This document shows positions 7,781-60,776 of a stretch of 64,000 nucleotides of DNA, one piece after another. Within the stretch, counting starts at the first letter, position 1. Each line of letters starts with the position of its first letter. The DNA lies in assembly GCA_018970245.1 (NCBI GenBank), contig JAGWWT010000003.1, positions 3,519 through 67,518 on the forward strand, given 5' to 3'. The stretch comes from Patescibacteria group bacterium. Its GTDB lineage: Bacteria; Patescibacteriota; Minisyncoccia; Phycocordibacterales; PALSA-1337. A model generated the notes under the pieces. That model did no database searches and was not told the DNA's origin. It was given only the letters and a program-made list of their open reading frames with translations. The position numbers and the translations under genes were made by a program.

Positions 7781-7833
7781 AGTCGAAAGTCTATAAAGTC
7801 ATAAAGTCGAAAGTCTATAAAGTCCTTAAAGTC
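7781..7833 (-). repeat. GACTTT(AT) heptad direct-repeat leader element, copy 1 (rplN|rplX junction)
   Basis: mRNA sense GACUUUAAGGACUUUAUAGACUUUCGACUUUAUGACUUUAUAGACUUUCGACUAAC-AUG. A 47-nt core is identical to the copy at 9873-9923. Confidence 0.7.
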
Positions 7834-8203
7834 AAACGATCTCCGGCGCACGGGACGCGATCGTCTTAAAGCCTGCCTCGGCGATCTCGCGAGGGATCGG
7901 GCCGAAGATGCGCCCGGCTATCGGCTCCTTCTTATCCTTCTCGATGATGACCACGGCATTCTCGTCAAAGCGCACATACGACCCGTCTTTGCGGCGCTTT
8001 GGCTTGGTCTGACGGACGACGACGGCGTGGAGGACGTCTTTCTTCTTGACCGCTTTGCGCGGTTCGGCTTTCTGGACCGAAAGGACGACGACTTCGCCGA
8101 TCTCGGCATAGCGCTTCTTGGAAGCGCCGAGGACCTTGAAGATGCGGCCGATCTTGGCGCCGCTGTTATCTGCAATATTCACGATTGAACGGGGTTGGAT
8201 CAT
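7832..8203 (-). CDS. rplN: 50S ribosomal protein L14
   Basis: 123 aa, MIQPRSIVNIADNSGAK... Confidence 0.93.
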   Translation of the reverse strand: MIQPRSIVNIADNSGAKIGRIFKVLGASKKRYAEIGEVVVLSVQKAEPRKAVKKKDVLHAVVVRQTKPKRRKDGSYVRFDENAVVIIEKDKKEPIAGRIFGPIPREIAEAGFKTIASRAPEIV

Positions 8204-8208
8204 GGCGG

Positions 8209-8490
8209 TTATGCGATCACTTTGAATGCCTTATTCTTCGAGATCGGGCGGCAGGCTTCGATCGTAGCCTTGTCTCCCGTCTTCTTTGTATTCCCGGCAT
8301 CGTGGGCCATTATCTTTGTGCGGCGGAGCTGGAACTTGTGGTATTTTGCGTGCTTCACGTAGCGGCGGACCTCGACGACGGCGGTATCCTTCATCTTGTC
8401 GGATACGACCACGCCCGAGAACGTCTGGCGCTTCAAGGCCTTCTGCGGCTTTGCGGCTGTCTTTTCTGTTTTGGCGGCTGTTGCTGGCAT
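8209..8490 (-). CDS. rpsQ: 30S ribosomal protein S17
   Basis: 93 aa, QTFSGVVVSDKMKDTAVVEVRRYVKHAKYHK; position between rpmC and rplN. Confidence 0.9.
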   Translation of the reverse strand: MPATAAKTEKTAAKPQKALKRQTFSGVVVSDKMKDTAVVEVRRYVKHAKYHKFQLRRTKIMAHDAGNTKKTGDKATIEACRPISKNKAFKVIA

Positions 8491-8502
8491 GGAAATGTGA
8501 TA

Positions 8503-8688
8503 TTACTTCGCGGCGTTCATCGCTGTCAATATGCGGGCTATGTCCTTCCTGATGGCGCGGCCCTCTTTTACGTTCTTCGTCTTGGCGCCGGCGGCTCCGA
8601 AGCGGAACACGCGCAGAGCCTCGCGCTTCTCGGAAAGCATCTTGGCCAGGTCGGCTTGCGTCTTCGTCTTTATTTCCTTCGTTTTCAT
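8503..8688 (-). CDS. rpmC: 50S ribosomal protein L29
   Basis: 61 aa, MKTKEIKTKTQADLAKMLSEKREALRVFRF. Confidence 0.88.
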   Translation of the reverse strand: MKTKEIKTKTQADLAKMLSEKREALRVFRFGAAGAKTKNVKEGRAIRKDIARILTAMNAAK

Positions 8689-8706
8689 GGTGATTTGGAT
8701 ATTGGA

Positions 8707-9132
8707 TCAGGAGCGCGATACGACTTTCGTCTTGACCGGGAGCTTCGTGCCGGCTTTGCGGAGCGCTTCAGCGGCCACAGCTGCCTCGACGCCGTCGATC
8801 TCGAACATGATGCGGCCAGGCTTGACCTCGGCGATGAAGCCCTGCGGGTCGCCCTTGCCCTTCCCCATCTTGACTTCGGCCGGCTTCTGCGTGAAAGGAT
8901 GATCAGGGAAAACGCGGATCCAGACCTTGCCGGATTTGGTGGCGTAGCGGGCCATGACCTTGCGGGCGGCTTCGATCTGGTTCGAGGTCACGCGCGCATA
9001 CTTCATAGCCTTGAGACCGTATGACCCGAAAGCGAGGCCGATGCCGCGCGTCTCCGCGTGAGCAGCCTCCTTCTCGCGATGCTGTCGCATCGTGAACCAC
9101 TTCCTATGCTTTACTTTTTTGGGGAATAACAT
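8707..9132 (-). CDS. rplP: 50S ribosomal protein L16
   Basis: 141 aa, MLFPKKVKHRK...GKGKGDPQGFIAEVKPGRIMFEI. Confidence 0.93.
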   Translation of the reverse strand: MLFPKKVKHRKWFTMRQHREKEAAHAETRGIGLAFGSYGLKAMKYARVTSNQIEAARKVMARYATKSGKVWIRVFPDHPFTQKPAEVKMGKGKGDPQGFIAEVKPGRIMFEIDGVEAAVAAEALRKAGTKLPVKTKVVSRS

Positions 9133-9194
9133 GTTAGTTGCAGGTTACAAGTTACAGGTTACAGGTGTCACCTGCTACCTGCAACCTGTTACTT
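9133..9194. repeat. heptad-array palindromic element (GTTNCAR)n-(YTGNAAC)n, locus A (rpsC|rplP junction)
   Basis: gttagttgcaggttacaagttacaggttacaggtgtcacctgctacctgcaacctgttac. The two arms form a long imperfect hairpin. Confidence 0.75.
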
Positions 9195-9869
9195 TTAGGT
9201 GTTCTTCTGGTCTTTCTTGAATATCTCGCCCTTGTATATCCAAACCTTGATGCCGATATCGCCATAGGTCATATGCGCCTTCTCGCGGGCAAAATCGATG
9301 TCCGCACGGAGCGTCTGGAGCGGGATCTGGCCCTTCTTGAGCTCTTCGGTGCGGGCGATCTCGGCGCCTCCCAAACGGCCCGCCAAACGGATGCGGATGC
9401 CTTTGACTTCCTTATTGGCCATGACTTTCTCGATGGTCTGCTTCATGACGCGGCGGAAAGGCAAGCGCTTCTCCAGCGATTCAGCTACCATCATGCCGGC
9501 TATGGCCGCGTTCGACTCGGGATTCCTGACCTCTTCGATGTCTATCTTGAGCTCCTGTCCGTTCAAAGCGATGGACCTGTCATGAAGGAGCCGCATGATC
9601 TTGGCTCGGAGCTTGGTGACGCCGTCACCGGCCTTGCCTATGAGAAGACCGGGCCTGGAAGTCTTTATGATGATGCGCAGGGCCTTTTGGTTGCGCTCGA
9701 TCTCGACGCCGCCCACATAGTTGCTGCGGAGGGCCTCCGTGAGGAATTCGCGTATCACCAGATCGCCTTTCAGGGCCGAACGGTATCCTTTGTGCGAGGA
9801 GAACCAGCGGCTCTTCCAGTCGCGGATGATCCCTAGCCTATGAGAATATGGGTGGACGGTGTGGGACAT
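9195..9869 (-). CDS. rpsC: 30S ribosomal protein S3
   Basis: 224 aa with KH and S3-C domain sequence (GVEIERN...RIRLAGRLGGAEIARTE). Confidence 0.93.
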   Translation of the reverse strand: MSHTVHPYSHRLGIIRDWKSRWFSSHKGYRSALKGDLVIREFLTEALRSNYVGGVEIERNQKALRIIIKTSRPGLLIGKAGDGVTKLRAKIMRLLHDRSIALNGQELKIDIEEVRNPESNAAIAGMMVAESLEKRLPFRRVMKQTIEKVMANKEVKGIRIRLAGRLGGAEIARTEELKKGQIPLQTLRADIDFAREKAHMTYGDIGIKVWIYKGEIFKKDQKNT

Positions 9870-9872
9870 GTT

Positions 9873-9923
9873 AGTCGAAAGTCTATAAAGTCATAAAGTC
9901 GAAAGTCTATAAAGTCATAAAAT
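9873..9923 (-). repeat. GACTTT(AT) heptad direct-repeat leader element, copy 2 (rplV|rpsC junction)
   Basis: Sequence identical to 7781-7827, ending CUAAC-AUG. It begins immediately after the rplV stop codon. Confidence 0.7.
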
Positions 9924-10312
9924 CATTTTGCGGCAGCCTTCTTCTTGGCCGCGGGTTTAGCGGCCATCGCGCTCTTGGGCTGCTCGACCGGAGCAAGGAC
10001 GATGGACACGTGGCTCGTCCGCTTCTTTATCGGATGGGCTGAACCGCGCGACACCGGCATGAAGCGCTTGAGGGTGTACCCCTTATCGACCCGGATCTCC
10101 TTGATGAAAAGCATGCCCTTGTCGATGCTGTGGTTATGGGATGCGTTGGAGACTGCAGATCTCAAGAGGTCAGCCAGCGGAGACTTGGCTTTCTTCGAAG
10201 CCACGCCCAGTATGGCCTCGGCTTGCGAGACGCTCTTCCCGCGGATCATATCGGCCACAAGGCGGACCTTGCGGGGCGAGATTCGGTGGTTTTTAAGCGA
10301 GGCTGTGATCAT
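9923..10312 (-). CDS. rplV: 50S ribosomal protein L22
   Basis: 129 aa, ISPRKVRLVADMIRGKSVSQAEAIL. Confidence 0.9.
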   Translation of the reverse strand: MITASLKNHRISPRKVRLVADMIRGKSVSQAEAILGVASKKAKSPLADLLRSAVSNASHNHSIDKGMLFIKEIRVDKGYTLKRFMPVSRGSAHPIKKRTSHVSIVLAPVEQPKSAMAAKPAAKKKAAAK

Positions 10313-10318
10313 TTTCTA

Positions 10319-10669
10319 TTATTTCTTAGTTGCGGCTGTGGTCGCTGCCTCCTTGGCTGCCTTTGCGGCGTTGAGCTCGGCTTCCTTGGCCTTCATCTCG
10401 ATCTCCTTCTGCATCTTTCCGCCATGGCGGACGAACTTCCTGGTCGGCGAGAACTCGCCGAGCCTGTGGCCGACCATATCTTCGGTTACGAAAACGTCCA
10501 CATGGGACTTGCCATTATGGACGCCGAAGGTGAAACCGACCATCTCTGGAGCGATCTGGGAGCGGCGGGCCCACGTCTTTATCGTGCCCAAAGAGCCCGG
10601 CTTCTTGCCGGTGATCTTCTTCATGAGATTCTCGTCAACGTATGGGCCTTTCTTTAGGCTTCTGGACAT
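10319..10669 (-). CDS. rpsS: 30S ribosomal protein S19 (Lys/Ala-rich C-terminal tail)
   Basis: [19 protein letters not shown]...[18 protein letters not shown]. Confidence 0.92.
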
Positions 10670-10887
10670 GGATGTTTTATTTCGATCCTGGATCTCAGCT
10701 AGATGCCTCTGCGAACAGCTGCGTTTCGTAGCCGGTCAGAATAAAAAAGTGGCTCAAATGAGCGTGGTGGCATGTTAACAGAGCCGTCATTTTAAGTCAA
10801 GGAATCGGCCGCCAGCCTCCATTCAAAGCCATGGCTGCTGGTCCGAGATTTGATGCTCTCCCCCATCGGCGCTATAATCATGCGGAA

Positions 10888-11721
10888 ATGAACTACGAAA
10901 TATTGCTCAACGGCCAGGGGATCGTCTCTGGCAACCTTGTCGGCACCGGAGCTATCGCCATCATATCTATCGCCGTCCTCATAGGCGCCATCGTCGCAGC
11001 AGGCCGCAGGATCATCCGGAAGCTGCGCGAGAATGACACGCTCAAATACGAGTTCATCACTATAATAGCCCACAAATTCAGGACTCCTCTCACCAGCACG
11101 AAATGGCTCCTTGAAGGCCAGATATCGGACGAGACAGACCATACGAAGAAGGAGAGCCTGATCGAGATGAAGAACAATACCGAGAACCTCATCTCCATGA
11201 CCGGAACGCTGATAGAGATGACGGATACTGATAACGAATCGAAGTCTTCCTATGAATTCGATAAGACAGACCTTTGCGACATCGTGAAGTCTGTAGCGGA
11301 TGCCCACAAGAGCATGTTCCACGAGAAGAACCTGTTCTTCTCTGTCAGGTGCGAAGCGGAAGGCGTCATAGTGAATGCCGACAAGCCCCGCCTGGAATTC
11401 GTCCTCCAAACTCTCATGGAAAATGCCAAATCATACACGCCGCCAGGTCGGAATGTCGAGGTCATCGTGGGCAAGAATGGCAGGTTCGGGACGGTCTCAG
11501 TGATCGACAGCGGCATAGGCATAGCGCCGCAGGACATGAGGCACATCTTCACCAAGTTCTACAGGACAAAAAACGCCCAGCAGATGGATACTGAGGGCTT
11601 CGGTGTCGGGCTTTTCTTGGCCCGATCGGTCATAAAGCGCCACAAGGGCCGACTAGAAGTCAGCTCGCCCGGAATAGACCAAGGCACGACTTTCACTCTT
11701 TCCCTGCCGCTGGCCAGATAA
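10888..11721 (+). CDS. sensor histidine kinase (HisKA + HATPase_c) with one N-terminal TM segment; orphan, no response regulator nearby
   Basis: H-box IIAHKFRTPL; ATP-binding lid DSGIGIAPQDMRHIFTKFYR...GFGVGL. Start placed at the ATG MNYEILL; the ORF extends to 10831. It is antisense to rpsS and rplB. Confidence 0.75.
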   Translation: MNYEILLNGQGIVSGNLVGTGAIAIISIAVLIGAIVAAGRRIIRKLRENDTLKYEFITIIAHKFRTPLTSTKWLLEGQISDETDHTKKESLIEMKNNTENLISMTGTLIEMTDTDNESKSSYEFDKTDLCDIVKSVADAHKSMFHEKNLFFSVRCEAEGVIVNADKPRLEFVLQTLMENAKSYTPPGRNVEVIVGKNGRFGTVSVIDSGIGIAPQDMRHIFTKFYRTKNAQQMDTEGFGVGLFLARSVIKRHKGRLEVSSPGIDQGTTFTLSLPLAR

Positions 11722-11872
11722 CGGCTATTTTGGGCGCTTTTACGCCGCAGAGGCTGGCTCACTTGCCTATGATCAAGCGCACGAGCTTGGCGATCACGAA
11801 TTTAGTGGATTTTGAGAGTATGTCGTACATGCTTTTGTGGAGAATGGGCCGATTGACCGTCTGGACCAGCGC

Positions 11873-12727
11873 TTAGCTGGCTGCTCGCATGTTCTTGCCC
11901 GGCTCGCGTCTGGAGACGATGTAGACATTCGAATACTTCTTTGAGCGGCGAGTCTTCTGGCCCTTGCCGGCTGGCTTGCCCCAGCGCGTCTTCAAGCGTC
12001 TGAGACCGCGGCCTTGGCGCTGTTCGCCGCCGCCGTAAGGATGGTCGACAGGGTTCTGTGCCGTGCCGCGGACGGTCGGGCGGATGCCGAGCCAGCGTGA
12101 TCGGCCAGCCTTGCCGATGTGGACCAAGCGGTTCTCTTCGTTAGAAACGGCGCCTATGGAAGCCCAAGCGTCCTCATGGATCTTGCGGACCTCGGTCGAA
12201 GGCATCTTTATATGGGTGTAGCCGGCGTCATTGGCGATGACCTGAGCGAACGAGCCGGCCGAACGGACGAGCTTGGCGCCAGAGCCTGGTTTGACCTCGA
12301 TGTTGTAGACGAAGGTGCCGACCGGGATCTTCTTTAGCGGCAAACGGTTTCCGGTCTCGATAGGGGCGTTCTCGGACACGAGGAAGGAATTGCCGACCTT
12401 CATGGTCTTCGGCAGGAGGACATAGCGCTTGGTGCCGTCCTTGTAGTCGACGATGCCGACATAGCCGGTGCGGAACGGATCATATTCTACGGTCTTGACC
12501 GTGGCGACCATGTCTTTCTTGTCATACATGAAGTCGATCTCTCGATAGAGCTTCTTGTGGCCGGCGCCCTTGTGGCGAACGGTGACGCGGCCGTGAGCGT
12601 TGCGCCCGACATCGCGCTTGAAACCGTGAGTGAGCGGCTTGTACGGCTCCGAAGCGGTGACGTACTCCTTGAACGGGAGGACGGTCATGTGGCGGCGCGA
12701 TTTGGTATATGGTCGGTAGGATTTCAT
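11873..12727 (-). CDS. rplB: 50S ribosomal protein L2
   Basis: 284 aa, ...GRNAHGRVTVRHKGAGHKK..., GTAQNPVDHPYGGGEQRQGRG. Confidence 0.95.
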   Translation of the reverse strand: MKSYRPYTKSRRHMTVLPFKEYVTASEPYKPLTHGFKRDVGRNAHGRVTVRHKGAGHKKLYREIDFMYDKKDMVATVKTVEYDPFRTGYVGIVDYKDGTKRYVLLPKTMKVGNSFLVSENAPIETGNRLPLKKIPVGTFVYNIEVKPGSGAKLVRSAGSFAQVIANDAGYTHIKMPSTEVRKIHEDAWASIGAVSNEENRLVHIGKAGRSRWLGIRPTVRGTAQNPVDHPYGGGEQRQGRGLRRLKTRWGKPAGKGQKTRRSKKYSNVYIVSRREPGKNMRAAS

Positions 12728-12735
12728 GGAAATAT

Positions 12736-12764
12736 GGTTACAGGTTGCAAGTCGCAGGTTACAC
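12736..12764. repeat. heptad-array element, short locus B (rplW 3' end|rplB start), GTTNCAR units only
   Basis: ggttacaggttgcaagtcgcaggttacac. Overlaps the last codons and stop codon of rplW. Confidence 0.55.
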
Positions 12765-13214
12765 GAAGTCGATCTTTTCGCCAGCCTTCACGGTCACAAG
12801 CGCCTTGCGCATGCCCGCGACTGTCCCCTTCTTGCCTTTGACGAAGACGTTCTTCATGGGGGTGTTGATCATGGCCACCTTGACTGGGGTGACCTTGTAG
12901 ATGGCCTTTATGGCCTTGGCGACGCTGGCCTTGTTGGCGTCCTTGTTGACCTCGAACGTGTAGACGTTCGACTGCGAAAGAAGGCCGGATTTCTCAGTCA
13001 CGCGCGGCCGGATGACCACCGAGGCGGCAACGGTCTCTTCTACGACCTTGAGCTTCGGGACGGCAACAGCCTTGGTCTTGGATCCGGACTGGACGGCTGC
13101 CTTCTGCTTCTTGGCGCCCTTGGCCGGCGACTTCTTATCGGCGACAGCCTTGGCCGCCTCGGCGCCCTGCTCGAGCTTCTCGTCTTTGCGCTTTTTGAAA
13201 CCGAATATGGCCAT
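12759..13214 (-). CDS. rplW: 50S ribosomal protein L23 with Lys/Ala-rich N-terminal extension
   Basis: C-terminal region ...NVYTFEVNKDANKASVAKAIKAIYKVTPVKVAMIN matches L23. Confidence 0.85.
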   Translation of the reverse strand: MAIFGFKKRKDEKLEQGAEAAKAVADKKSPAKGAKKQKAAVQSGSKTKAVAVPKLKVVEETVAASVVIRPRVTEKSGLLSQSNVYTFEVNKDANKASVAKAIKAIYKVTPVKVAMINTPMKNVFVKGKKGTVAGMRKALVTVKAGEKIDFV

Positions 13215-13219
13215 GGCGG

Positions 13220-13879
13220 TTATTTCTTGGCGGTCAGAGCTTTTAGAGACTCTGCCGGATTGGCGACTATGAGGAACGTATGGTTCAGCACTGAAACGGG
13301 ATTGATGTTCCTGAATTCCTCGACGGCGACGTTCCCGAAATTGCGGAAGCTCTTCTCGACGGCCGCAGCCTTCTTGTCCAGGGCGATGATGGCGGCATTG
13401 GCCTTCTTCGTGCCCAACCTCTCATAGCCCTTTATCTTGGACAGAGAATCGAGGACGCCCTTGGCTTCCTTGGCTTTCGGCGCTTCGAACTTCACTGAAT
13501 CAAGGAATAGGATCTCGCCATCCTTGTACTTTTTAGAAAGGATCGTGAAAAGGGCCTTGGATTTGGCTTTGCGGTTGATCTTTCTGGAATAGTTCTTCTC
13601 GTTGCGAGGACCGTGCGCGACGCCGCCGCCGACCCAGATCGGCGAACGCGTCGAACCGTGGCGGGCGCGGCCTGTTCCCTTCTGCTTCCAAGGCTTCCTG
13701 CCGCCGCCGCGGACCTCACCGCGGGTCTTGGTATGGGCAACGGGCGTCCTAGAGTTTGAGTTCATGAGCCGCACGATCTCATGTACGAGATCGGCATTCC
13801 AAGGAACGTTGAAAATATCCTCGGGAAGAGAGATCTTGCCGGCTGATTTGCCCTGCTGGTTATAGACGGTCGCTTCCAT
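13220..13879 (-). CDS. rplD: 50S ribosomal protein L4
   Basis: METAVYNQQGK...KPWKQKGTGRARHGS. Start placed at the internal ATG; the ORF extends to 13924. Confidence 0.9.
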   Translation of the reverse strand: MEATVYNQQGKSAGKISLPEDIFNVPWNADLVHEIVRLMNSNSRTPVAHTKTRGEVRGGGRKPWKQKGTGRARHGSTRSPIWVGGGVAHGPRNEKNYSRKINRKAKSKALFTILSKKYKDGEILFLDSVKFEAPKAKEAKGVLDSLSKIKGYERLGTKKANAAIIALDKKAAAVEKSFRNFGNVAVEEFRNINPVSVLNHTFLIVANPAESLKALTAKK

Positions 13880-13957: not shown

Positions 13958-14018
13958 GCGCGGTTTTCGCAAGGTCGAGCGCGGTTTTCGCAAGGTCGAG
14001 CGCGGTTTTCGCACGACA
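13958..14018. repeat. 21-bp tandem direct repeat, about 2.7 copies (gcgcggttttcgcaaggtcga)
   Basis: Read directly. Further small tandem duplications lie at 14264-14305 and 14306-14330. The ORF 13919..14329 (ARFSQGRARFSQGRARFS) is an artefact of these repeats. Confidence 0.8.
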
Positions 14019-15846: not shown

Positions 15847-15862
15847 CCGCCTAATTCTAGCA

Positions 15863-25708: not shown

Positions 25709-25716
25709 GGGATTAA

Positions 25717-25766
25717 GGTTACAGGTCACAGGTTACAGGTGTCACCTGCTACCTGTTACTTGCTAC
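25717..25766. repeat. heptad-array palindromic element, locus C (rpsJ 3' end|rplC)
   Basis: ggttacaggtcacaggttacaggtgtcacctgctacctgttacttgctac. Overlaps the rpsJ stop codon. Confidence 0.75.
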
Positions 25767-26164: not shown

Positions 26165-26170
26165 ATCAAT

Positions 26171-26222
26171 GGTGACAGGTTACAAGTATCAGGTTTCAAC
26201 CTGCTACCTGTCACCTGCAACT
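26171..26222. repeat. heptad-array palindromic element, locus D (tuf|rpsJ junction)
   Basis: ggtgacaggttacaagtatcaggtttcaacctgctacctgtcacctgcaac. Confidence 0.75.
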
Positions 26223-26225
26223 TCG

Positions 26226-36270: not shown

Positions 36271-36324
36271 GAGATTAAGTCTATGAAGTCTATAAAGTCC
36301 GTAAAGTCCTTGAAGTCCTTAAGG
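36271..36324 (-). repeat. GACTT heptad direct-repeat leader element, copy 3 (upstream of fusA)
   Basis: mRNA sense CCUUAAGGACUUCAAGGACUUUACGGACUUUAUAGACUUCAUAGACUUAAUCUC-AUG. Confidence 0.65.
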
Positions 36325-36390
36325 CGGACATTGAATAATAAAAAAGCCGGGGGCTTAGTGGCCTAACGATACAGGAAGTACCGGGAATAA

Positions 36391-36933: not shown

Positions 36934-37269
36934 GCCAGAATTTTATCATAAAAGTTAAACCCGCATGAGGACATGCGGGTGGGTTAACAAGGAGGGAGCA
37001 AATGAGTGGTATGAGAGCAAAAAGAGCGAAGTGAGACAGTGATGGAAGCAGAAATGGTTGATTCGAAGAATATATGCGAGAGAGCTGTTAAGCGTTGAGA
37101 GCACCTGGGGGTTGGAAGTCAAATGAAGGCTCTCGCATACCCATTTCCGTTGTCCTATGTCTCTGTAAAAGATCAATCCTTCTTACGATATATATACGAC
37201 TCGAACATCATCGGTGGCGCAAGAACGGCGCAAAGGTAATATCCTATAAAGATCCTCGTCGATTTTAAT

Positions 37270-38895: not shown

Positions 38896-38904
38896 GAGAT
38901 TGAT

Positions 38905-38976
38905 GGTTACAAGTTCCAGGTTACAAGTTGCAAGTTACAGGTGAAGATTGTGACCTGTTACTTGTTGCTTGTTACC
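38905..38976. repeat. heptad-array palindromic element, locus E (rpsL 3' end|rpsG start)
   Basis: ggttacaagttccaggttacaagttgcaagttacaggtgaagattgtgacctgttacttgttgcttgttacc. The YTGNAAC arm encodes the rpsL C-terminal codons. Confidence 0.75.
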
Positions 38977-39380: not shown

Positions 39381-39470
39381 TGTGATTACAAGTGACAGTA
39401 GCAAGTGACAGGGTTACAAGTTACAGGTGACAAGTTGCATTTTTTACCTGCTACCTGTGACCTGCTACTT
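39381..39470. repeat. heptad-array palindromic element, locus F (largest, about 90 bp; immediately upstream of the rpsL ATG)
   Basis: tgtgattacaagtgacagtagcaagtgacagggttacaagttacaggtgacaagttgcattttttacctgctacctgtgacctgctactt. Confidence 0.75.
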
Positions 39471-53349: not shown

Positions 53350-55098
53350 CTACTCCGACACCACTCGCAACACTTCCTCGATCGTCGTTATCCCGGCCGC
53401 GCATTTGAATATGCCGTCTTCGAGCATGGTGAGCATGCCCTCTTTCTTGGCCTGATCTTCGATCTGCGCGGAGGTGGCATTCTTCATGATGAGGTCGCGT
53501 ATGGCCGGGGACATCTTTAGGACTTCATGCACTCCGCTCCGGCCCTTGAAACCGTCGTTGTCTCCGGCCGCCACCGGCTTCCAGAACGGGATATCGGCCC
53601 AGCCGTCTCCGGATTTGATTATCTTCTCCGCTTTCAAGGCTTCCAAGACTCGCGACAGATCCCCGAGCTTTTCGAGCTGGGCCAGCTCGGCCTTCGAAAG
53701 GGTGTATTTCTCCCTGGAATCCGTAAGCCTCCTCACGAGCCTCTGTCCGATCACGATATCTATGGTGGATGCGAGCAGGAACGGCTCGACCTTCATATCC
53801 AAGAGGCGCGGGATGGCTCCAGCGGCGGAATTGGTGTGCAAGGTCGAGAGCACTAGGTGGCCCGTGAGGGCCGCATTGACGGCCAAAGCGGCGGTCTCGT
53901 CGTCGCGGATCTCGCCGACCATGATTATGTCCGGGTCTTGTCGGACCAGAGTGCGTATGCCTTGGGCGAATGTGAAGCCGATCTCCGGCCTGACATTGGT
54001 CTGGTTGATGCGCGGCATCTGGTATTCGATCGGGTCCTCGATCGTCGAGATGTTCACGTCTGGCGTGTTCAGGATGTCGAGCATCGTATACAGCGTCGTC
54101 GTCTTTCCCGATCCGGTAGGGCCAGTGGTCAATATCATGCCTGTATCCTGCTTCAGGGCCCAATGGATGCGTTCCAGCGTCTCGCCGTGGAATGTCAGGA
54201 ATTCGAGAGTGTACCCGGAGATGGCGTCCCGCAATAGGCGCATGACGATCTTTTCGCCATAGTAAGTCGGCAGGATCGAGACGCGGAACGAGACTTTCTC
54301 ATCGGACATGTCGACTTTGAAGCGGCCGTCCTGTGGCAGGCGCTTCTCGTCGAGCTTGAGATTGGAAAGGACCTTTATGCGAGCGGAGACAGAGGGGCCG
54401 GCTTGGCGCGGCAGGACCATGGCATCGTGGAGGAGGCCATCTATGCGGTACCTGACGAGGACCTGGTCTTCCATGGGCTCGATATGGATGTCCGACGCGT
54501 TCTGGAGGATGGCGTGCTTGATCAATGTGTCGACGATGCGCACGACGGGCAGGTCTTCGGCGATCTTCTTGAGATCGGCCTCGGAAGCGGCTTCGCCCTT
54601 CTCCTCCGAAAGCATCTTGAGGGTCTCCGTCTCCTTCTGGATGATGTCGCCGAACTCCGCTTTGAGGCTCTTCTGGTACTGGACCAGCACTTCCTTTATG
54701 GAATCAGTGTCCGTGAGCCGAGGAAGGATCTTGAGGTTCACCTTCTTCTTTATGAAATCGATGGCCGAAAGGTCGTTCACGTCGAGCATGGCCACCTCGA
54801 GCGTCAGGTCCGTCTTCTTGAAAGCGACGATATTGTGGCTCCTGGCGATAGGCTCCGGGATGAGAGAAAGCGTCTCGAAAGGTATCTTCTTGTTCTTGAG
54901 GTCCACGAATGGGATGCCGAGGACATATGCCTGCATCCGCCTCAGGTTGTCAGCCGTGATCTTCCCAGCCTTGACCAGAACATCGCCAAGGCGCTTGTTC
55001 TTCTTTTCCGATTCGGCTTTGGCCGAATCCAGGTCCTCATGCGTGACCAACCCTGAATCGAGGATGAATTTGTAAAGCTGGGCGTCTTCGACGAACAT
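53350..55098 (-). CDS. pilB: type IV pilus assembly ATPase PilB/GspE
   Basis: Walker A GPTGSGKTTTLY, Asp/His boxes, N-terminal GSPII domain. Confidence 0.9.
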   Translation of the reverse strand: MFVEDAQLYKFILDSGLVTHEDLDSAKAESEKKNKRLGDVLVKAGKITADNLRRMQAYVLGIPFVDLKNKKIPFETLSLIPEPIARSHNIVAFKKTDLTLEVAMLDVNDLSAIDFIKKKVNLKILPRLTDTDSIKEVLVQYQKSLKAEFGDIIQKETETLKMLSEEKGEAASEADLKKIAEDLPVVRIVDTLIKHAILQNASDIHIEPMEDQVLVRYRIDGLLHDAMVLPRQAGPSVSARIKVLSNLKLDEKRLPQDGRFKVDMSDEKVSFRVSILPTYYGEKIVMRLLRDAISGYTLEFLTFHGETLERIHWALKQDTGMILTTGPTGSGKTTTLYTMLDILNTPDVNISTIEDPIEYQMPRINQTNVRPEIGFTFAQGIRTLVRQDPDIIMVGEIRDDETAALAVNAALTGHLVLSTLHTNSAAGAIPRLLDMKVEPFLLASTIDIVIGQRLVRRLTDSREKYTLSKAELAQLEKLGDLSRVLEALKAEKIIKSGDGWADIPFWKPVAAGDNDGFKGRSGVHEVLKMSPAIRDLIMKNATSAQIEDQAKKEGMLTMLEDGIFKCAAGITTIEEVLRVVSE

Positions 55099-55246
55099 AT
55101 CGCTCCTATTGTACCAAAATCCGCGTCAAAATGGGCATGCCCAGGCATTGTTCATAGCCGGCTTTCAGATGAAAAAACCGCGAGCCAGAGAGGCCCGCGG
55201 GCGAAGCGCTGATGAAGCAAGCTGTTATCGGGACGTCAGGCAGACA

Positions 55247-55882
55247 TCACACCGGTTCCGATCCGTGCGGATGGTTCCAGAGGACCAGCCCGCACTCCTT
55301 CGGCACCTCTAGTCGCCTGGAATACACGTGGGCATGGACTTGGAAGTCGAACCCGTCCACAGGCCGGTGTATGGCCAGTATGCTGGGGACTTTGCGCGGG
55401 TCGTCCTCGAGCGGCTTATGGAGGACCAACAGCCACTCGAATCCGAGCGATTCCAGATCCGCGTCCGAGATCAGCAGCCTTAACGGCAGGCAGACCTCTG
55501 GGAACGGCAGGCTGAATCCGAGGACATCGGCCACGGCTTCGACGCTGTCGATGTCGAGCCGATCGTTCTCCAGCATCCCTACGGCCGGGAGGACGATAAG
55601 ATCATGATGGAACCAGCGTCCCATCATCTCTTTGTTCTCCGGCGTGACCTCTCCGAAACGAGGATGCGCGAATACGGCCTTTGCTTCTGGACTGACGCTG
55701 ACGCCATTCCTTGCCGCAAGCTCCAGGAGGGCGTCCCCCCGGAGCGGCAGCAAGCCTGCCGTCGGGACGCGCACAGACCATTGCCCGCGTATCTCAGACC
55801 AAATGCGGCAATCCTGGTGCCATAACCGCGCTCCTCGCACGGCTTTGCTCTCATCTGCTTCTAATGTGCTCATGATACTCAT
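55247..55882 (-). CDS. hypothetical protein upstream of pilB
   Basis: 211 aa; I recognise no motifs. Confidence 0.4.
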   Translation of the reverse strand: MSIMSTLEADESKAVRGARLWHQDCRIWSEIRGQWSVRVPTAGLLPLRGDALLELAARNGVSVSPEAKAVFAHPRFGEVTPENKEMMGRWFHHDLIVLPAVGMLENDRLDIDSVEAVADVLGFSLPFPEVCLPLRLLISDADLESLGFEWLLVLHKPLEDDPRKVPSILAIHRPVDGFDFQVHAHVYSRRLEVPKECGLVLWNHPHGSEPV

Positions 55883-56161
55883 CGTTACCTTTCGTTCTTC
55901 AGTCCTTGTACGGCAGCGATGACTTAATCAGGTCCATTGAACTGCGCCAACAGATCCAACGGATACTGCGTATAATTCTAACAGATCTGTCAAAAAGTCA
56001 AGGCCGGCGGATGCGTGAATAAGCTGTGGTTTTCATGTGAATAGCCGAGCCGCAGCCGGACCTCTTTACAAATTTAAAATTTGTGGTAATATCCATCGCG
56101 GCCCGCCTTCATAGGCGGAAAACAAAATAACGACAGAAAGTCAGAACATTGGAAATAAAGT

Positions 56162-57175
56162 ATGAGATCGAAAATCACTTCGGTATTGACAGCGGCCGTC
56201 TTAGCCGCGTCCGTGGCCCTGGCATTTAACGCCAAAGCTGATACTAACATGCAATATGTGGCTCGTCTCCGCCCTGGCGTGAACGTCAAGATGGAATGCG
56301 CCGTGCTGGAGAATCAAGCCATCTCTGCGGGACCGACGGTATTATGCATATCAGGGCTCGCCCACAATGGCGAAACATTCCGACAGCTCGCCGAAGACCT
56401 CATGGCCAAAGGCGCGAAGCGCGCCATCCTATTCGAGCTTCCAGGCCGTGAAGGCAGCGGTTTGCCATTCGGACGGAACGATGCGCCGGAGTTCGGCGAT
56501 CTGACCGTCGAGGATTATGCCAATGCAGTCATAGACTGCTTGACCCAGTGTGAGGAGCAGGGCACCCCTGTCTCGGTCATAGTCGCCCATTCTATGGGCG
56601 GTCTGATCGTCCAGGTCGCCCAGGAAAAGCTCCTGTCGAGCGGATCCTCGCTTCATTGCGCTTACGGCGTCAATGAAGCCGTACTGCTGTCCAGCGCCCC
56701 GCCGGCGGGAGTGGTCAACCCCGTATTCGAGGCTGGAGCAGGGACCCAGTTGGTCAACGCGTTCGCCACAGATGTACCAGGTCTAGGCCACATAGTCTAC
56801 GTGCCATCCTCCTACATCCCCCTGCTATTCATGTCCTATCCTCTATATCAGCCGGTGGCCGACGCGGTCTCCCAAGACCAACTCGACGCGCTAGCTCCTT
56901 ACGAGGAATCGTATGCGGCCTCGATAGAGACCGCTGGGCCGAGCTCAGAGCGGCCGACGGTGCGCGCCGGCGCTTTCTCTTCAGCCAATGGCACTGCGCT
57001 CCAAGTGATCGTCGGATCGGAAGACGTGTTCAACACGGCTTCCGTCCAGCAGTCCTTGTCTGACTATCTCACGGGCGCTTCGCAGCCGATCACCGTCATA
57101 TCCGCCGGTTCGCCGGTCCATGATCAGTACTGGACCGAACCCGATCAAGTGGCCGCCGCTATCGATCTGAACTAA
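56162..57175 (+). CDS. secreted alpha/beta hydrolase (lipase/esterase-like)
   Basis: Signal peptide, nucleophile elbow AHSMGG. Confidence 0.7.
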   Translation: MRSKITSVLTAAVLAASVALAFNAKADTNMQYVARLRPGVNVKMECAVLENQAISAGPTVLCISGLAHNGETFRQLAEDLMAKGAKRAILFELPGREGSGLPFGRNDAPEFGDLTVEDYANAVIDCLTQCEEQGTPVSVIVAHSMGGLIVQVAQEKLLSSGSSLHCAYGVNEAVLLSSAPPAGVVNPVFEAGAGTQLVNAFATDVPGLGHIVYVPSSYIPLLFMSYPLYQPVADAVSQDQLDALAPYEESYAASIETAGPSSERPTVRAGAFSSANGTALQVIVGSEDVFNTASVQQSLSDYLTGASQPITVISAGSPVHDQYWTEPDQVAAAIDLN

Positions 57176-57206
57176 TCAGAGCGTCCTAACGCCATATCAT
57201 CCATAG

Positions 57207-57236
57207 CCCGTCTCGCTCCTCGAGACGGGTTTTTTC
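57207..57236 (+). terminator. rho-independent terminator after the lipase gene
   Basis: CCCGUCUCG-CUCCU-CGAGACGGG followed by UUUUUUCUUGCAUUUUU. Confidence 0.8.
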
Positions 57237-57310
57237 TTGCATTTTTCCATAGATATGGTATGCTTTGGTCCATCAAGCACATGTTCGCCGGAAAGCGGAC
57301 ATTTTTATTA

Positions 57311-57383
57311 GGTTACAGGTAGCAGGTAGAAAAATGCAACTTGTAACTTGTCACTTGCAACCTGCCACTTGTCGCCTGCAACT
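57311..57383. repeat. heptad-array palindromic element, locus G (upstream of nusA)
   Basis: ggttacaggtagcaggtagaaaaatgcaacttgtaacttgtcacttgcaacctgccacttgtcgcctgcaactg. Confidence 0.7.
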
Positions 57384-57422
57384 GTCGAAAATTTAATAAC
57401 AATCGAATAACAACTAAATATC

Positions 57423-58697
57423 ATGTTCGATCTAAAAGTCATCAATTCAGTAGTTGAGCAGCTCGAGGAAGAGCGCGGCATCCCGCGCGAGAAGACCCTC
57501 GAGGCCATCGCCATGGCTCTCGCGACCGCCTACAAGAAAGAGTACGGAAAGAAGGGCCAGATCGTCAGAGCGTCTTTCGACCAGAACTCCGGACAAGTCG
57601 AGTTTTGGCAGGTCAAGATCGTGGTCGACCGCGACCAGGTGATCATGGAGGGCGATGAGGAGATGGACCACACAGAGCTAAAGGACGCCAACGTCGAAGA
57701 CATAAAGATCCGCTTCAATCCCGAGCAGCACATGCTCATAGACGATGCCAAGAAGATAAAGCGCGACGCCCAGATCGGCGACGAGCTCGTCTTCCCGCTG
57801 GAGACCAAGGCTGATTTCGGCCGAATCGCCGCTCAGACAGCCAAGCAGATCATCATCCAGAAGATCCGCGAGGCCGAGAAGGTCTCGGTCATGGGCGAAT
57901 ATGGCGAAAAGGAGGGAGAGGTCGTAGCCGGCACCGTCGAGCGCGTCGAGCGCGGAACGGTCTACATAGACATGGGCCGGGCAGTGGGCATCATCCCTTA
58001 CGAAGAGCAGATCCCGAGCGAGCGCTGGAAGACCGGCGACCGCATCCGCGCCTATCTCTACGCCGTCGAAGAGACGCCGAAAGGCATCGTCCTCAAACTC
58101 TCCCGCGCTCATCCCAAATTCCTGGCCAAGCTCTTCGAGACCGAAGCGCCGGAGATCGCCGCAGGCACCGTCGAGATCAAAGCTATCGCCCGCGAGGCAG
58201 GCAGCCGCTCTAAGGTCGCCGTCGTATCTCATGATTCGCATATAGATCCTATCGGCTCCATGGTCGGCCAGCGCGGCGTCCGCGTCTCGACGGTCACGAG
58301 CGAGCTCTCCGGCGAAAAGATCGACATCGTCGAATGGAACGAAGACCCTGCTCTATTCATAGAAGAGGCCCTGTCCCCCGCTGAAGTCGTATCTCTCGAG
58401 CTCGATGAGAACGAGCATCGCGCGATCGTCACCGTCACTGAAGACGAGCAGTCGCTCGCCATCGGCAAGGGAGGCCAGAATGTGCGCCTCGCCGCCAAGC
58501 TCACCGGTTGGAAGATAGACATAAAATCCGCCGGCGATGAAGGCGAGGTGCTCGATGAAGGGGAGCCTGGAGAAGAGACGGCAGACGAAGCGGCCACGGA
58601 AGTCGTAGCCGAGATCGTAGCTGAAAAAGCTGAGAAAGCCGCGCAGGACAAAGGGCAGGCTGACGTTACGCCTCCCGCAGAAGGATCCAAGGAATAG
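57423..58697 (+). CDS. nusA: transcription termination/antitermination factor NusA (acidic C-terminal tail)
   Basis: NusA-N, S1 and two KH domains (GxxG: IGKGGQNVRLA). Confidence 0.92.
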   Translation: MFDLKVINSVVEQLEEERGIPREKTLEAIAMALATAYKKEYGKKGQIVRASFDQNSGQVEFWQVKIVVDRDQVIMEGDEEMDHTELKDANVEDIKIRFNPEQHMLIDDAKKIKRDAQIGDELVFPLETKADFGRIAAQTAKQIIIQKIREAEKVSVMGEYGEKEGEVVAGTVERVERGTVYIDMGRAVGIIPYEEQIPSERWKTGDRIRAYLYAVEETPKGIVLKLSRAHPKFLAKLFETEAPEIAAGTVEIKAIAREAGSRSKVAVVSHDSHIDPIGSMVGQRGVRVSTVTSELSGEKIDIVEWNEDPALFIEEALSPAEVVSLELDENEHRAIVTVTEDEQSLAIGKGGQNVRLAAKLTGWKIDIKSAGDEGEVLDEGEPGEETADEAATEVVAEIVAEKAEKAAQDKGQADVTPPAEGSKE

Positions 58698-58702
58698 GTC
58701 AC

Positions 58703-60673
58703 ATGGCCAGACAACCCCATTCGCACCGAAGGAAGCCTTTTATCGGCGTCATCATGACGACTGGCAAAGGACTTGGATTCATCAATGATGAAGCCCGGCC
58801 TTTTCCCGAAGACATCCTCATCGAGGCGGGCGGCCTCGAGACGGCTTTGAACGGAGATACAGTCGAGTTCACAGTCCTTCCAAGGCGGCCGGGAATGATC
58901 CGCCAGACCGGCAAGGTAATCCGCGTGGTAAAGAGAGCCAAAACAATCTTCGTCGGCACCATCCAGCTCGAAAATCGGACCGCCGGCTTCTCGCCGGACG
59001 ACAACCGCGCATATACCGATTTCTTCGTGCCCGCGAACAAGCTGGGCGGCGCTAGGCACGGCGACAAGGTCCAGGCCAAGCTGGCCTCTTGGACCGACCC
59101 GAAGCGCCTCCCAACCGCCGAAGTCATCCGCGTCCTAGGCGCCAAGGGCGAGCACAACGTGGAGATGGAATCCATCGTGCTCGACAAAGGCTTCGATACC
59201 CGATTCCCGGCTCCAGTCCTCGATGAAGCGGCCGAGATCGAGCGGCGCAAGGCCGAGATCATGGCTCACGAGATCGCCACGATAGGCAAAGCTAATGGCC
59301 GCCGCGATCTCCGCGATGCGCTGACCTTCACGATCGATCCCGTCGACGCCAAAGACTTCGATGACGCTATCTCCTTCCGGGCTTTGCCAGGATCGCTCTA
59401 TGAGATCGGCGTCCACATCGCAGATGTTTCAGAGTATGTCCGAGAAGGATCGGCCCTCGACAAGGAGGCGCTCCATCGCGGCTCTTCCGTCTACCTCGTA
59501 GACCGCACCATACCCATGCTGCCTGAAGTGCTTTCGAACGACGTCTGCAGCCTGAATCCCGGCTCTGACAAGCTGGCATTCTCGGCTATCTTCACCATGG
59601 ACGCCCATGGCAAGATCCATGGCCGCTGGTTCGGCAAGACCATCATCAATTCGAACAAGCGGTTCACGTATGAAGAGGGTCAGGAGGTTCTGGATGGCAA
59701 GAAAGAGACCTACCGCGAAGAGCTCACAGCCCTGAACAAGCTGGCCAAGATCCTTCAAAAAGAGAAATTCGCCGCTGGCGCCATAGAGTTCGAGCAGGAC
59801 GAGATAAAATTCAAGCTCGACGCCGACAACAAGCCTATCGGCGTCTATCGAAAGGTCCGGACCGACATCCACAAGCTCGTGGAAGAATTCATGCTCCTCG
59901 CCAACCGCGAAGTCGCCAAGTTCACCTTCGATTCCATAAAGAAGAACGGCAACGGCCGTCAGACTGGCGCTATCTACCGCATCCACGATGTGCCGGACAA
60001 GGACAAGATCGTCGATCTCGGGATCCTAGTCCGCGCCCTCGGCCATTATTTCCCAGAGACTGGCGACATCAGTTCCAAAGAGCTGAGCGCCATGCTGAAG
60101 AGCATCGAAGGTGCCCCGGAAGCTTCGCTCATCAAGACCGCGGCCATCCGTTCCATGTCCAAAGCCATCTATTCGACCAAGAATATCGGCCATTTCGGTC
60201 TAGCATTCCCGTTCTATACGCATTTCACCTCTCCTATCCGTCGCTATCCGGACCTTCTGGTGCATCGCATATTAGCCAATCACCTGTATGTGAAGAGATT
60301 CGGCGATCGCGATCTAGCCCGATTCGACCAGATCGCCATGCGCTCTACAGAGCGCGAGATCGCCGCCGCCGAAGCCGAGCGCGCTTCGGTCAAATACAAG
60401 CAAGTAGAGTACATGCAAAGCCGCATCGGCGCCGAATTCGAAGGCACCGTGACCGGCGTCACCGAGTGGGGCATCTACATAGAAGAGAAAGGGACTAAGT
60501 GCGAAGGCATGGTCCCTCTACGGAGCCTCGACGATTTCTACGAGCTCGACAAGAAGAACTATTGTTTGGTCGGCCAGAAGACCAAAAAACGCTACCGCCT
60601 GGGCGACAGCGTCCGTTTCAATGTCATTTCCGCCGACTTGGAACGCAAGACGCTCGATTACGCCTTGGTGTAA
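58703..60673 (+). CDS. rnr: ribonuclease R / RNase II family exoribonuclease
   Basis: Cold-shock/OB N-terminus, RNB domain (RRDLRDALTFTIDPVDAKDFDDAISF), C-terminal S1. Confidence 0.88.
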   Translation: MARQPHSHRRKPFIGVIMTTGKGLGFINDEARPFPEDILIEAGGLETALNGDTVEFTVLPRRPGMIRQTGKVIRVVKRAKTIFVGTIQLENRTAGFSPDDNRAYTDFFVPANKLGGARHGDKVQAKLASWTDPKRLPTAEVIRVLGAKGEHNVEMESIVLDKGFDTRFPAPVLDEAAEIERRKAEIMAHEIATIGKANGRRDLRDALTFTIDPVDAKDFDDAISFRALPGSLYEIGVHIADVSEYVREGSALDKEALHRGSSVYLVDRTIPMLPEVLSNDVCSLNPGSDKLAFSAIFTMDAHGKIHGRWFGKTIINSNKRFTYEEGQEVLDGKKETYREELTALNKLAKILQKEKFAAGAIEFEQDEIKFKLDADNKPIGVYRKVRTDIHKLVEEFMLLANREVAKFTFDSIKKNGNGRQTGAIYRIHDVPDKDKIVDLGILVRALGHYFPETGDISSKELSAMLKSIEGAPEASLIKTAAIRSMSKAIYSTKNIGHFGLAFPFYTHFTSPIRRYPDLLVHRILANHLYVKRFGDRDLARFDQIAMRSTEREIAAAEAERASVKYKQVEYMQSRIGAEFEGTVTGVTEWGIYIEEKGTKCEGMVPLRSLDDFYELDKKNYCLVGQKTKKRYRLGDSVRFNVISADLERKTLDYALV

Positions 60674-60743
60674 TAAAACTGAATCGATCCTCTGTCAAGC
60701 CTATCATTTGAGCCGTTTTCTGCTAGAATCGGCTTCATTACGC

Positions 60744-60773
60744 GACTTTATTAGATTTTAAGACTTTGACTTT

Positions 60774-60776
<3 letters not shown>
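60744..60776 (+). repeat. GACTTT heptad leader element, copy 4, running into the hppA start codon
   Basis: gactttattagattttaagactttgacttt-ATGACC. Confidence 0.55.

Follow-up and report, generated by a model that had tools for sequence, protein, structure and literature searches.

Tandem GACUUU leaders at start codons in a Parcubacterial genome, candidates for Shine-Dalgarno-independent ribosome loading

GACUUU arrays at rplX, rpsC, fusA and hppA

The window analysed here is a 64,000-nt stretch (64 kb) of contig JAGWWT010000003.1, part of a metagenome-assembled genome (MAG) of an uncultured member of the Patescibacteria/Parcubacteria in the candidate phyla radiation (CPR), and all coordinates refer to this whole window. 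At four loci in it tandem GACUUU units, read in the mRNA sense, end 0-7 nt 5' of a start codon, namely those of rplX, rpsC, fusA and hppA (Table 1). NCBIfam assigns L24, S3, EF-G, Na+/H+-PPase, L14 and L22 to the genes around the arrays, and no surface or accessory gene within the window carries one. For S3, NCBI lists identical proteins under the name Patescibacteria group bacterium, and close homologues under Paceibacterota or Parcubacteria. The window also displays other CPR features, namely a 72-aa L24, the lack of L30 between S5 and L15 and the presence of opposite-strand foreign genes in the ribosomal protein (r-protein) operon.

The arrays, AT-rich against a genomic GC content of 56%, comprise 4-7 units each, with spacings of 7, 8 or 9 nt that form a 24-nt superunit. 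The rplX array consists of six exact GACTTT units and a terminal GACTAAC (7778-7784) and makes up the entire spacer from the rplN stop (7832-7834) to the rplX ATG (7777-7775), its first unit overlapping the UGA stop codon of rplN. Likewise the rpsC array takes up the whole distance from the rplV stop (9923-9925) to the rpsC ATG (9869-9867) with five exact units and the same terminal GACTAAC (9870-9876), and Tandem Repeats Finder (TRF) assigns to it a 24-nt period in 2.0 copies at 100% identity. The five units of the fusA array follow a strict 9-nt period (36317-36276) and the last of them lies 5 nt from the ATG, whereas in the hppA array the units (GACTTT, GATTTT, GACTTT and GACTTT in DNA) adjoin the ATG without a gap. 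The hexamer GACTTT occurs 57 times in the window against an expectation of 23.5 +/- 4.4, and three clusters with at least three GACTT within 12 nt were observed compared with 0.017 in Markov simulations.

The segments 7775-7824 and 9867-9916, at junctions 2 kb apart, are identical over 50 nt, that is 47 nt and the ATG. The match runs from the start codon to the array edge and no further, leaving the coding sequence on either side unduplicated, and with limits this exact a recent segmental duplication was rejected as the origin of the block. Block and array share their edges, where no target-site duplication is found. As an identical block at two junctions without flanking identity, it suggests that arrays are copied between junctions by recombination, probably gene conversion, and the exact 24-nt internal duplication, together with the dominance of 7-nt periods described below, points to replication slippage as the source of the repeats.

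The rplX and rpsC arrays contain the three-codon mini-ORF (open reading frame) AUG ACU UUA UAG, which the fusA and hppA copies lack. This restricted occurrence, the length of only three codons and the lack of significant predicted structure set it apart from a regulatory leader peptide or an attenuator based on an upstream ORF (uORF). The terminal GACUAAC unit of both arrays reproduces the common ending ACUAAC-AUG.

The GACUUU leaders have folding energies of -9 to -13 kcal/mol per 91 nt (z from -1 to +0.6 relative to shuffled sequences), whereas the palindromic leader of rplP in the same window reaches -30.7 kcal/mol (z = -4.4). A hidden palindrome or stable RNA structure was rejected on this basis, and the leaders do not fold as REP/MITE palindromes or terminal inverted repeats would. 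The arrays have no inverted arm and no terminal inverted repeats, no complementary AAAGUC array was found within the window, and no transposase (RAYT) lies near the arrays in the window. A search with Rfam 15 at gathering score, r-protein leaders included, gave no match in the whole window or in seven related loci, so a known RNA family or r-protein leader was rejected as well. The superunit is absent from the viral contigs searched, and a phage origin was likewise discarded. GGA motifs number three in the fusA copy (9 nt apart) and one in the rplX copy, with none in the rpsC or hppA copies; the pattern of CsrA sites, with at least two GGA, usually looped and overlapping a Shine-Dalgarno (SD) sequence, is thus not seen. 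No csp or csrA gene was found within the window, and a 73-aa ORF at 36955-37176 that had been considered as a csp gene has no Pfam match.

None of the arrays contains a sigma70-like -35/-10 pair (16-18 nt spacer) in sense, and a sigma70 promoter within the arrays was rejected. Relatives of the host possess clear TTGAC-N17-TAGNAT promoters, the -10 region of which matches the putative extended -10 element TTTTCTGCTAGAAT upstream of hppA. If this promoter is used, the array would make up most of a ~40-nt 5' untranslated region (UTR) of hppA. In the r-protein clusters of relatives, sigma70-like promoters of the type TTGACN-17-TAGGAT, TAAGAT or TAGTAT are located in the rplB-rpsS spacers, often together with TTTTCTGCTA.

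Much of this had been anticipated by the initial annotation. It had placed mRNA-sense arrays before the same four genes, with 47 nt of exact identity between the rplX and rpsC copies, one mini-ORF before rplX and two before rpsC, two AAGGACUU units in the fusA copy and an hppA copy that continues into the start AUG (ATG at 60774), and reading of the four sites and a search for the unit bear these points out. Folding supports its description of the repeats as direct and non-palindromic, and the local duplication of flanking coding sequence that it named as a possible trivial cause of the 47-nt identity does not apply, as the coding flanks are not part of it. Two details needed correction. The array locations stand, with lower limits that reach further, to 7778 for rplX and 9870 for rpsC. 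The units are direct repeats as claimed, but the variable spacing and the 24-nt superunit do not allow them to be called strict heptads.

Table 1. Arrays, shared block, mini-ORFs and neighbouring signals in the window
Feature	Position	Strand	Remarks
rplX leader array	7778..7834	-	UGACUUUAAG GACUUUAUA GACUUUC GACUUUAU GACUUUAUA GACUUUC GACUAAC, then AUG; rplN-rplX spacer as mRNA: UGA-CUUUAAG GACUUUAUA GACUUUC GACUUUAU GACUUUAUA GACUUUC GACUAAC AUG
rpsC leader array	9870..9925	-	UGAUUUUAU GACUUUAUA GACUUUC GACUUUAU GACUUUAUA GACUUUC GACUAAC, then AUG; rplV-rpsC spacer as mRNA: UGA-UUUUAU GACUUUAUA GACUUUC GACUUUAU GACUUUAUA GACUUUC GACUAAC AUG
fusA leader array	36271..36322	-	UUAAGGACUUC AAGGACUUU ACGGACUUU AUAGACUUC AUAGACUUA AUCUC, then AUG (36270)
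hppA leader array	60744..60773	+	GACUUUAUUA GAUUUUAA GACUUU GACUUU, then AUG (60774) directly
Identical block, copy 1	7775..7824	-	47 nt and rplX ATG; same in strains L001 and L002
Identical block, copy 2	9867..9916	-	47 nt and rpsC ATG; same in strains L001 and L002
Terminal degenerate unit GACUAAC	7778..7784, also 9870-9876	-	clade start context A-6, U-4, A-3, C-1
Mini-ORF AUG ACU UUA UAG	7791..7802	-	stop 13 nt from rplX AUG
Mini-ORF AUG ACU UUA UAG, proximal	9883..9894	-	stop 13 nt from rpsC AUG
Mini-ORF AUG ACU UUA UAG, distal	9907..9918	-	begins 4 nt past rplV stop
Terminator-like hairpin AAGCCCCCGGCUU and U-tract	36344..36356	-	ends upstream ORF6N-domain gene, ~20 nt upstream of fusA array
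Putative extended -10 promoter TTTTCTGCTAGAAT	60716..60729	+	motif shared with sigma70-like promoters of relatives; missed by strict -35/-10 scan
Palindromic heptad family, window sites	9133-9192, 12728-12775, 25716-25766, 26165-26225, 38896-38975, 39386-39468, 57335-57387		

Repeat leaders and start signals in strains and relatives

The window has two close strain counterparts, the MAG contigs L001 (99.2% identity) and L002 (99.8%), and in these three strains the rplX and rpsC arrays are base-for-base the same. Between rplX and rplE, L001 has an additional heptad hairpin of 96 nt (L001:12306-12401; AGTATGA-type units; -35.5 kcal/mol, z = -7.2) that is absent from L002 and from the window (7545-7562), where only 8 nt lie at that position. 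The first unit of this hairpin repeats the last 7 nt of rplX, AGUAUGA, stop codon included, which suggests that the element was seeded locally from the end of rplX. This comparison shows that arrays are gained or lost whole between strains.

A scan of metagenomes with S3 yielded 80 related loci (L123-L202) of 62-83% S3 identity. Leaders were compared in them by spacer length; a strict periodicity score (80% threshold) misses degenerate arrays. The rplV-rpsC spacer of the relatives has a median of 4 nt, most being 4-10 nt long and typically reading AAAUAAC-AUG. At 13 of the 71 loci measured the spacer upstream of rpsC is at least 25 nt long and is built of lineage-specific short direct repeats, the units being GACUUU in L130, AACUUUU in L125 and L159, AAGCUAA in L151, AAACCCU in L185, AAAUACU in L194, UUUCGAA in L133 and AUUUUGC in L198. 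From rplW-rplB to rplO-secY, with rplB-rpsS left out, the 13 junctions have median spacers of 4-16 nt, and longer spacers are found at rplB-rpsS, rpsJ-rplC, tuf-rpsJ and fusA-tuf. Where sampling reached at least 25 loci, which is the case for nine junctions, 12-36% of the spacers measure at least 25 nt and are mostly arrays, and the long spacers are concentrated in L135, L153, L159, L127, L198, L194 and L124. A tblastn search for fusA orthologues in the related loci matched EF-Tu (cross-matches).

TRF reported 180 non-coding arrays in 743 kb, among which period 7 is the commonest (54 arrays, with a further 11 at period 14); coding-like arrays have mostly period 9 or 12. About half of the start-proximal arrays (33 of 62) possess a complementary upstream arm and would form a hairpin, and the remainder are direct-only like the GACUUU arrays of the window. 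GACUUU arrays with an inverted AAAGUC arm are present in L130 and L198. In L198, the S3 of which is only 64% identical, ACUUUAUAGACUUUGAACUUUAUGACUUUAUAGACU precedes rplN with 2 differences in 36 nt from the superunit of the window, and AUG ACU UUA UAG recurs 10 nt before the rplN AUG. GACUUU units also precede rpsC in L130, and the Zambryskibacteria contig L014 carries GACTTTATGACTTTATAGACTT. Neutral drift would hardly leave a superunit nearly unchanged over so deep a divergence, which implies either constraint or transfer.

The initial annotation had regarded the arrays as a shared leader module, perhaps one bound by an RNA-binding protein. Their place as translation-initiation leaders of housekeeping genes is retained, but rather than a special conserved module they are one family of a clade-wide class. 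Most relatives are arrayless at these junctions, and the unit sequence differs at orthologous junctions. The diversity of units and the arrayless relatives argue against a single conserved sequence-specific binder and favour a role at the level of composition or structure, or none.

The starts of the clade lack an SD signal. Of 1021 starts in the related loci, all of them ORF-based predictions, 8% have a 4-mer of the SD core at -20 to -4 and 2% a 5-mer, and no GGAGG-type motif lies within 20 nt of the four array-preceded starts of the window. In line with this, many Parcubacteria are reported to have lost the anti-SD motif, which was detected in only 48% of them (Tsurumaki et al. 2022, PMC9297842). 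No 16S rRNA gene is present in the window or in any of 202 loci. G drops to 5-12% of the bases between -15 and -1, and starts have the context A-6 (66%), U-4 (47%), A-3 (48%) and a pyrimidine at -1 (79%), the U-4/A-3 signal being partly due to upstream UAA stops in tightly coupled genes. The commonest start hexamer is ACUACC-AUG.

The start-proximal arrays themselves are poor in G, which makes up 8.6% of the 62 arrays against 23.5% of the loci overall. In the hairpin arrays the AUG-adjacent arm has less G than C in 27 cases against 5 (p = 1e-4) and holds 4 AUG against 21 in its complement, so that the orientation of these arrays relative to the start is not random. Upstream AUGs in array leaders number 9 against 25.7 expected, and six of the nine belong to the GACUUU family. 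The repeat class looks selected, its start-adjacent arm being G-poor and depleted of AUG, and the shape of the leaders appears to reflect selection against G, AUG and structure near the start.

Function and rival explanations

The GACUUU arrays are one family of start-proximal simple-sequence leaders with 7-9-nt units that are frequent in this SD-free Parcubacterial clade. They represent a CPR case of a known, functionally unexplained class of start-proximal heptamer direct repeats, the closest precedent being the TAACTGA repeats of marine Beggiatoaceae, some Cyanobacteria and Bacteroidetes (MacGregor 2015, Front Microbiol 6:1397, PMC4679880). In the Beggiatoaceae TAACTGA lies directly upstream of start codons, including those of fusA and of operon-internal r-protein genes, SD sequences are rare, and ribosomal protein S1 or cold-shock proteins (Csp) have been proposed as binders (PMC4679880). 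All four arrays of the window share the traits of this class, in that heptad-like direct units of ~7 nt stand in tandem in at least two copies, are intergenic and in gene sense a few nt from the start, and no canonical SD intervenes between repeat and start. As with TAACTGA, the repeats stand in place of an SD, fusA and operon-internal r-protein genes are among the genes that they precede, and a role in translation through S1 or Csp may be proposed. One TAACTGA unit serves many genes per genome; in the 64 kb of the window the GACUUU unit recurs at four loci. The GACUUU arrays differ in having 1-3 variable nt after each hexamer, hence 7/8/9 spacing and a 24-nt superunit instead of a strict heptamer, and in containing mini-ORFs, and many arrays of the relatives are paired with an inverted arm. 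Their CPR host also belongs to an SD-free clade, whereas the Beggiatoaceae keep the anti-SD and have an SD at ~25% of genes.

It is tentatively proposed, at a little less than even probability, that the arrays are U-rich and weakly structured leaders, generated by slippage and recombination, that serve SD-independent ribosome loading. An array would account for all of the intercistronic spacer, or for the greater part of the 5' UTR, as a weakly folded, SD-free single strand that ends in the clade-preferred start context ACUAAC-AUG. It could then act as a landing or standby platform on which the 30S subunit is loaded either directly or through an OB-fold single-strand binder such as S1 or a Csp. 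In this way the downstream housekeeping cistron would stay efficiently translated once stop-start coupling is no longer tight. A more specific version, which is improbable, makes the arrays of Parcubacteria without an anti-SD a working part of start-site selection that stands in for both SD pairing and tight stop-start coupling. Here either each 7-9-nt unit would accommodate one OB-fold domain, so that a Csp- or S1-coated single strand delivers the 30S subunit to the ACUAAC-AUG context, or operon-internal mini-ORFs would pass terminating ribosomes on in hops of 4, 12 and 13 nt.

A number of observations weigh against the proposal of SD-independent leaders. Most relatives have no array at the orthologous junctions, and since their median spacer there is 4-16 nt, arrays are not required; the diversity of units also speaks against a conserved sequence-specific binder. 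Direct-only arrays as a group have no G/C orientation bias (11 vs 9), GACUUU having one G and one C, and a test of start versus stop position for direct-only arrays in relatives was null (24 vs 24), with noise added by wrong-strand ORF calls. The folding energies of the GACUUU leaders are not below those of shuffled sequences (z about 0). Closeness to the start is trivial at operon-internal junctions, because the arrays fill the spacers, and the upstream AUGs that the arrays carry could reduce initiation at the true start rather than raise it. Lastly, the function of the arrays is wholly inferred.

The strongest rival, unlikely though deserving to be taken seriously, is that the arrays are neutral or selfish repeat DNA, either slippage-prone heptamer repeats or half-remnants of REP/MITE-like palindromes, spreading and expanding in what little non-coding sequence a compact genome has. 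Selection would only filter harmful versions that are G-rich, AUG-rich or structured near the start, and there would be no positive function. The absence of arrays from most relatives at orthologous junctions fits this explanation, as do the lineage-specific repeat units and the clustering of arrays in genomes such as L135, L153, L159, L127 and L198 when many others have none. So does the sister array that is found in one strain and is absent from two others at 99.2% identity. Whole elements of ~110 nt are copied among junctions of L153, a family with the terminus CCAATATACRAATG is common to L135, L151 and L190, and the GACUUU superunit stands before a different gene in L198. Heptanucleotides are moreover the commonest long simple repeats in many bacteria, an excess ascribed to polymerase slippage, as relayed in a paper on TAACTGA (Mrazek et al. 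2007, in PMC4679880). On the other hand the GACUUU arrays have none of the inverted arms, terminal inverted repeats or target duplications of such elements, no transposase is associated with them and the viral contigs lack the superunit. Neither array has changed in copy number over the three strains, and the near-identity of the superunit over deep divergence requires recent transfer or constraint. The orientation bias of the hairpin arrays and the depletion of AUG show selection, but pure filtering fits them too. A different kind of specificity is offered by the possibility that the units are tandem sites for a sequence-specific trans factor, be it a Csp-like or other single-strand binder taking ~7-8 nt each, CsrA at GGA or a small RNA, which is quite improbable. 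MacGregor proposed these candidates for TAACTGA, and here too one unit recurs at four genes of one genome. The 7-9 nt period equals one cold-shock-domain footprint and, being out of phase with the DNA helix, speaks for single-strand recognition. CspB of B. subtilis binds one heptanucleotide with the consensus GTCTTT(G/T), preferring C3 and T2, T4 and T6 (PMC1904285), and GACUUU(A/C) resembles this optimum, GUCUUU(G/U) as RNA, in C3, U4 and U6 (three of the four preferred positions), but carries A in place of the preferred U at position 2. Moreover the units of relatives differ at orthologous junctions and many are A-rich, which a conserved Csp would not track. For CsrA, the three GGA at 9-nt spacing in the fusA copy are offset by their absence from the rpsC and hppA copies, and within the window neither a csp or csrA gene nor an AAAGUC array complementary to the units was found.

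The mini-ORFs invite the explanation of a termination-reinitiation relay, in which they would catch ribosomes that have finished the upstream cistron and free them 13 nt before the true AUG, handing coupling over the 53-nt SD-less spacer of the operon-internal copies. This is an attractive but weakly supported special case and very improbable as a general account. The geometry before rpsC is suitable (stop, 4 nt, mini-ORF, 12 nt, mini-ORF, 13 nt, AUG), the same mini-ORF stands before rplN in L198, and in L130 a 12-codon uORF spans the rplV-rpsC spacer, with 5 nt separating it from the stop and another 5 nt from the AUG. Upstream AUGs are scarce otherwise, as given above, and since the hppA start uses GACUUU-AUG-AC the context is able to initiate. 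However, the fusA copy contains no AUG and the only AUG of the hppA copy is its start. The mini-ORF arises automatically where 8-nt and 9-nt units adjoin, its occurrences are not independent because of shared descent, and short uORFs are expected since stops are frequent in A/U-rich sequence. Least probable of all, to a degree that it can barely be entertained, is an element acting in DNA, such as an internal promoter, an UP-like element or an array of transcription factor sites that boosts downstream transcription. The AT-rich arrays in a 56% GC genome would suit such a role, and fusA needs a promoter within ~70 nt, array included, because a terminator-like hairpin lies directly upstream. Against this, no array contains a sense sigma70-like -35/-10 pair, the TTGAC-N17-TAGNAT promoters of relatives lie elsewhere and the likely hppA promoter is upstream of the array. 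The 7-9 bp spacing would place successive sites on differing faces of the helix, and both operon-internal copies replace spacers that in relatives are just 4-16 nt long.

Comparable systems and further repeat families

Cyanobacterial heptanucleotide repeats known as STRR were reportedly described by Mazel et al. in 1990. They share with the arrays the ~7-nt period, the intergenic position, lineage-specific units and a presumed origin by slippage. STRRs and other long simple repeats are however long, strictly tandem series of identical heptamers that are scattered without a required link to starts, whereas the window arrays are short and compound, with 7/8/9 spacing, and abut start codons. Some heptamer repeats near starts in Nostoc overlap the start codon and affect reporter expression (bioRxiv 10.1101/2022.06.06.494920). 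REP, BIME and MITE-like elements resemble the arrays as short, high-copy, intra-operon elements with presence or absence between strains and families that extend across junctions and genomes. They differ in that the GACUUU arrays are non-palindromic, have neither terminal inverted repeats nor target duplications and no RAYT or transposase was seen with them; a 7-nt internal period is not a REP feature either.

The 'epsilon' translational enhancer UUAACUUUA of phage T7 gene 10 is said to go back to Olins and Rangwala in 1989, and AU/U-rich leader enhancers that depend on S1 were reportedly described by Boni et al. in 1991. Epsilon has the same (A/G)ACUUUA core, and the relatives L159 and L125 carry literal UUAACUUU units. 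In both cases a U-rich single strand lies just upstream of the initiation region, and pairing-independent enhancement of the S1 type has been proposed. Epsilon acts as a single copy alongside an SD in E. coli, whereas the arrays have 4-7 tandem copies and no SD.

SD-blind Bacteroidia use a 'Kozak-like' context with A-3/A-6 and are depleted of AUG near starts (Baez et al. 2019, NAR 47:10477, PMC6847099). The Parcubacterial starts share with them the absence of SD, A at -3 and -6, low structure and avoidance of upstream AUG. Bacteroidia however keep the anti-SD and sequester it (PMC6847099), whereas published data suggest loss of the motif in many Parcubacteria, and the Bacteroidia model does not involve repeat arrays. 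Bacteroidota also have irregular GACTTT arrays that directly precede an ATG. The pattern GACTTT-N1-3 in three successive copies was searched for in genome contigs, and among the matches listed, which cover at least 120 genome stretches and do not include the window genome, Cyanobacteria have mostly (GACTTTT)n, Bacteroidota irregular arrays and Acidobacteriota (GACTTTG)n, and several CPR groups are also represented. In these other phyla, again among the matches listed, an ORF beginning with ATG lies within 30 nt downstream of irregular non-coding arrays in sense in 12 cases against 3 in antisense; for simple arrays such as the cyanobacterial (GACTTTT)n there is no such bias (6 vs 4). Flavobacterium and Bacteroidales contigs (L006, L023, L043, L084, L096, L097 and L113) bear irregular GACTTT(A/C/N) units 8-24 nt before ATG, often with an inverted AAAGTC arm upstream, and form a close parallel in an SD-blind phylum.

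The question of how start codons are found without SD pairing arises in Bacteroidia, in many Cyanobacteria and, going by published rRNA surveys, in about half of the Parcubacteria. Across the window and the 80 related loci, an SD-free CPR clade repeatedly makes intercistronic spacers and 5' UTRs from ~7-nt arrays, which turn over on the time scale of strains yet stay G-poor and AUG-poor and end in ACUA(A/C)C-AUG. The excess of heptanucleotide repeats and the TAACTGA start repeats would thereby be linked to SD-independent initiation through short sequences that can be tested with reporters. If the arrays are neutral, they still mark junctions where gene callers mis-set starts and would serve as fast-evolving markers for CPR strain typing.

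Other repeats accompany the GACUUU family. The palindromic heptad family of the window consists of (AGCAGGU)n followed by (ACCUGUA/ACUUGUA)n before rplP, rplB, rplC, rpsJ, rpsG, rpsL and nusA, with the G-poor arm always adjacent to the AUG. A third family, (GUAUNNN)n at 4611-4642 on the minus strand, leads into the likely rplF start (ATG 4603), and the listed TTG start of rplF at 4624 is probably wrong. The start of rplE is more likely at 7544 than at 7562, judging from the gene call in L001. Further exact tandem repeats in spacers of the operons are a 21-nt repeat in 2.7 copies upstream of rplD (13958-14013), a 20-nt repeat in 2.0 copies between rpsE and rplO (3021-3060) and a 13-nt repeat in 4.4 copies near secY (1197-1253). 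Among the relatives, hairpin arrays sharing the conserved 5' terminus CCAATATACRAATG form a family with members at L135:2646, L151:1001/2906/4041 and L190:9650; its presence in three distantly related genomes, always in operon sense at junctions, suggests spreading elements. A structured element of ~170 nt (...GAGAACCCCCTCACCAATTTTAC...GGTGAGGGGGTGATGATTTTG...AAAATC-ATG), for which Rfam gave no match, is found at differing r-protein junctions in L159, L194, L165, L178 and L185.

Within the window no tRNA or tmRNA genes were found. The str and S10 clusters are split by unrelated genes, and the opposite-strand non-ribosomal genes in the S10/spc operon are of the YkuD/peptidase S11 type (5457-6905, plus strand) and the HATPase_c type (10831-11721, plus strand) according to Pfam calls in L001.

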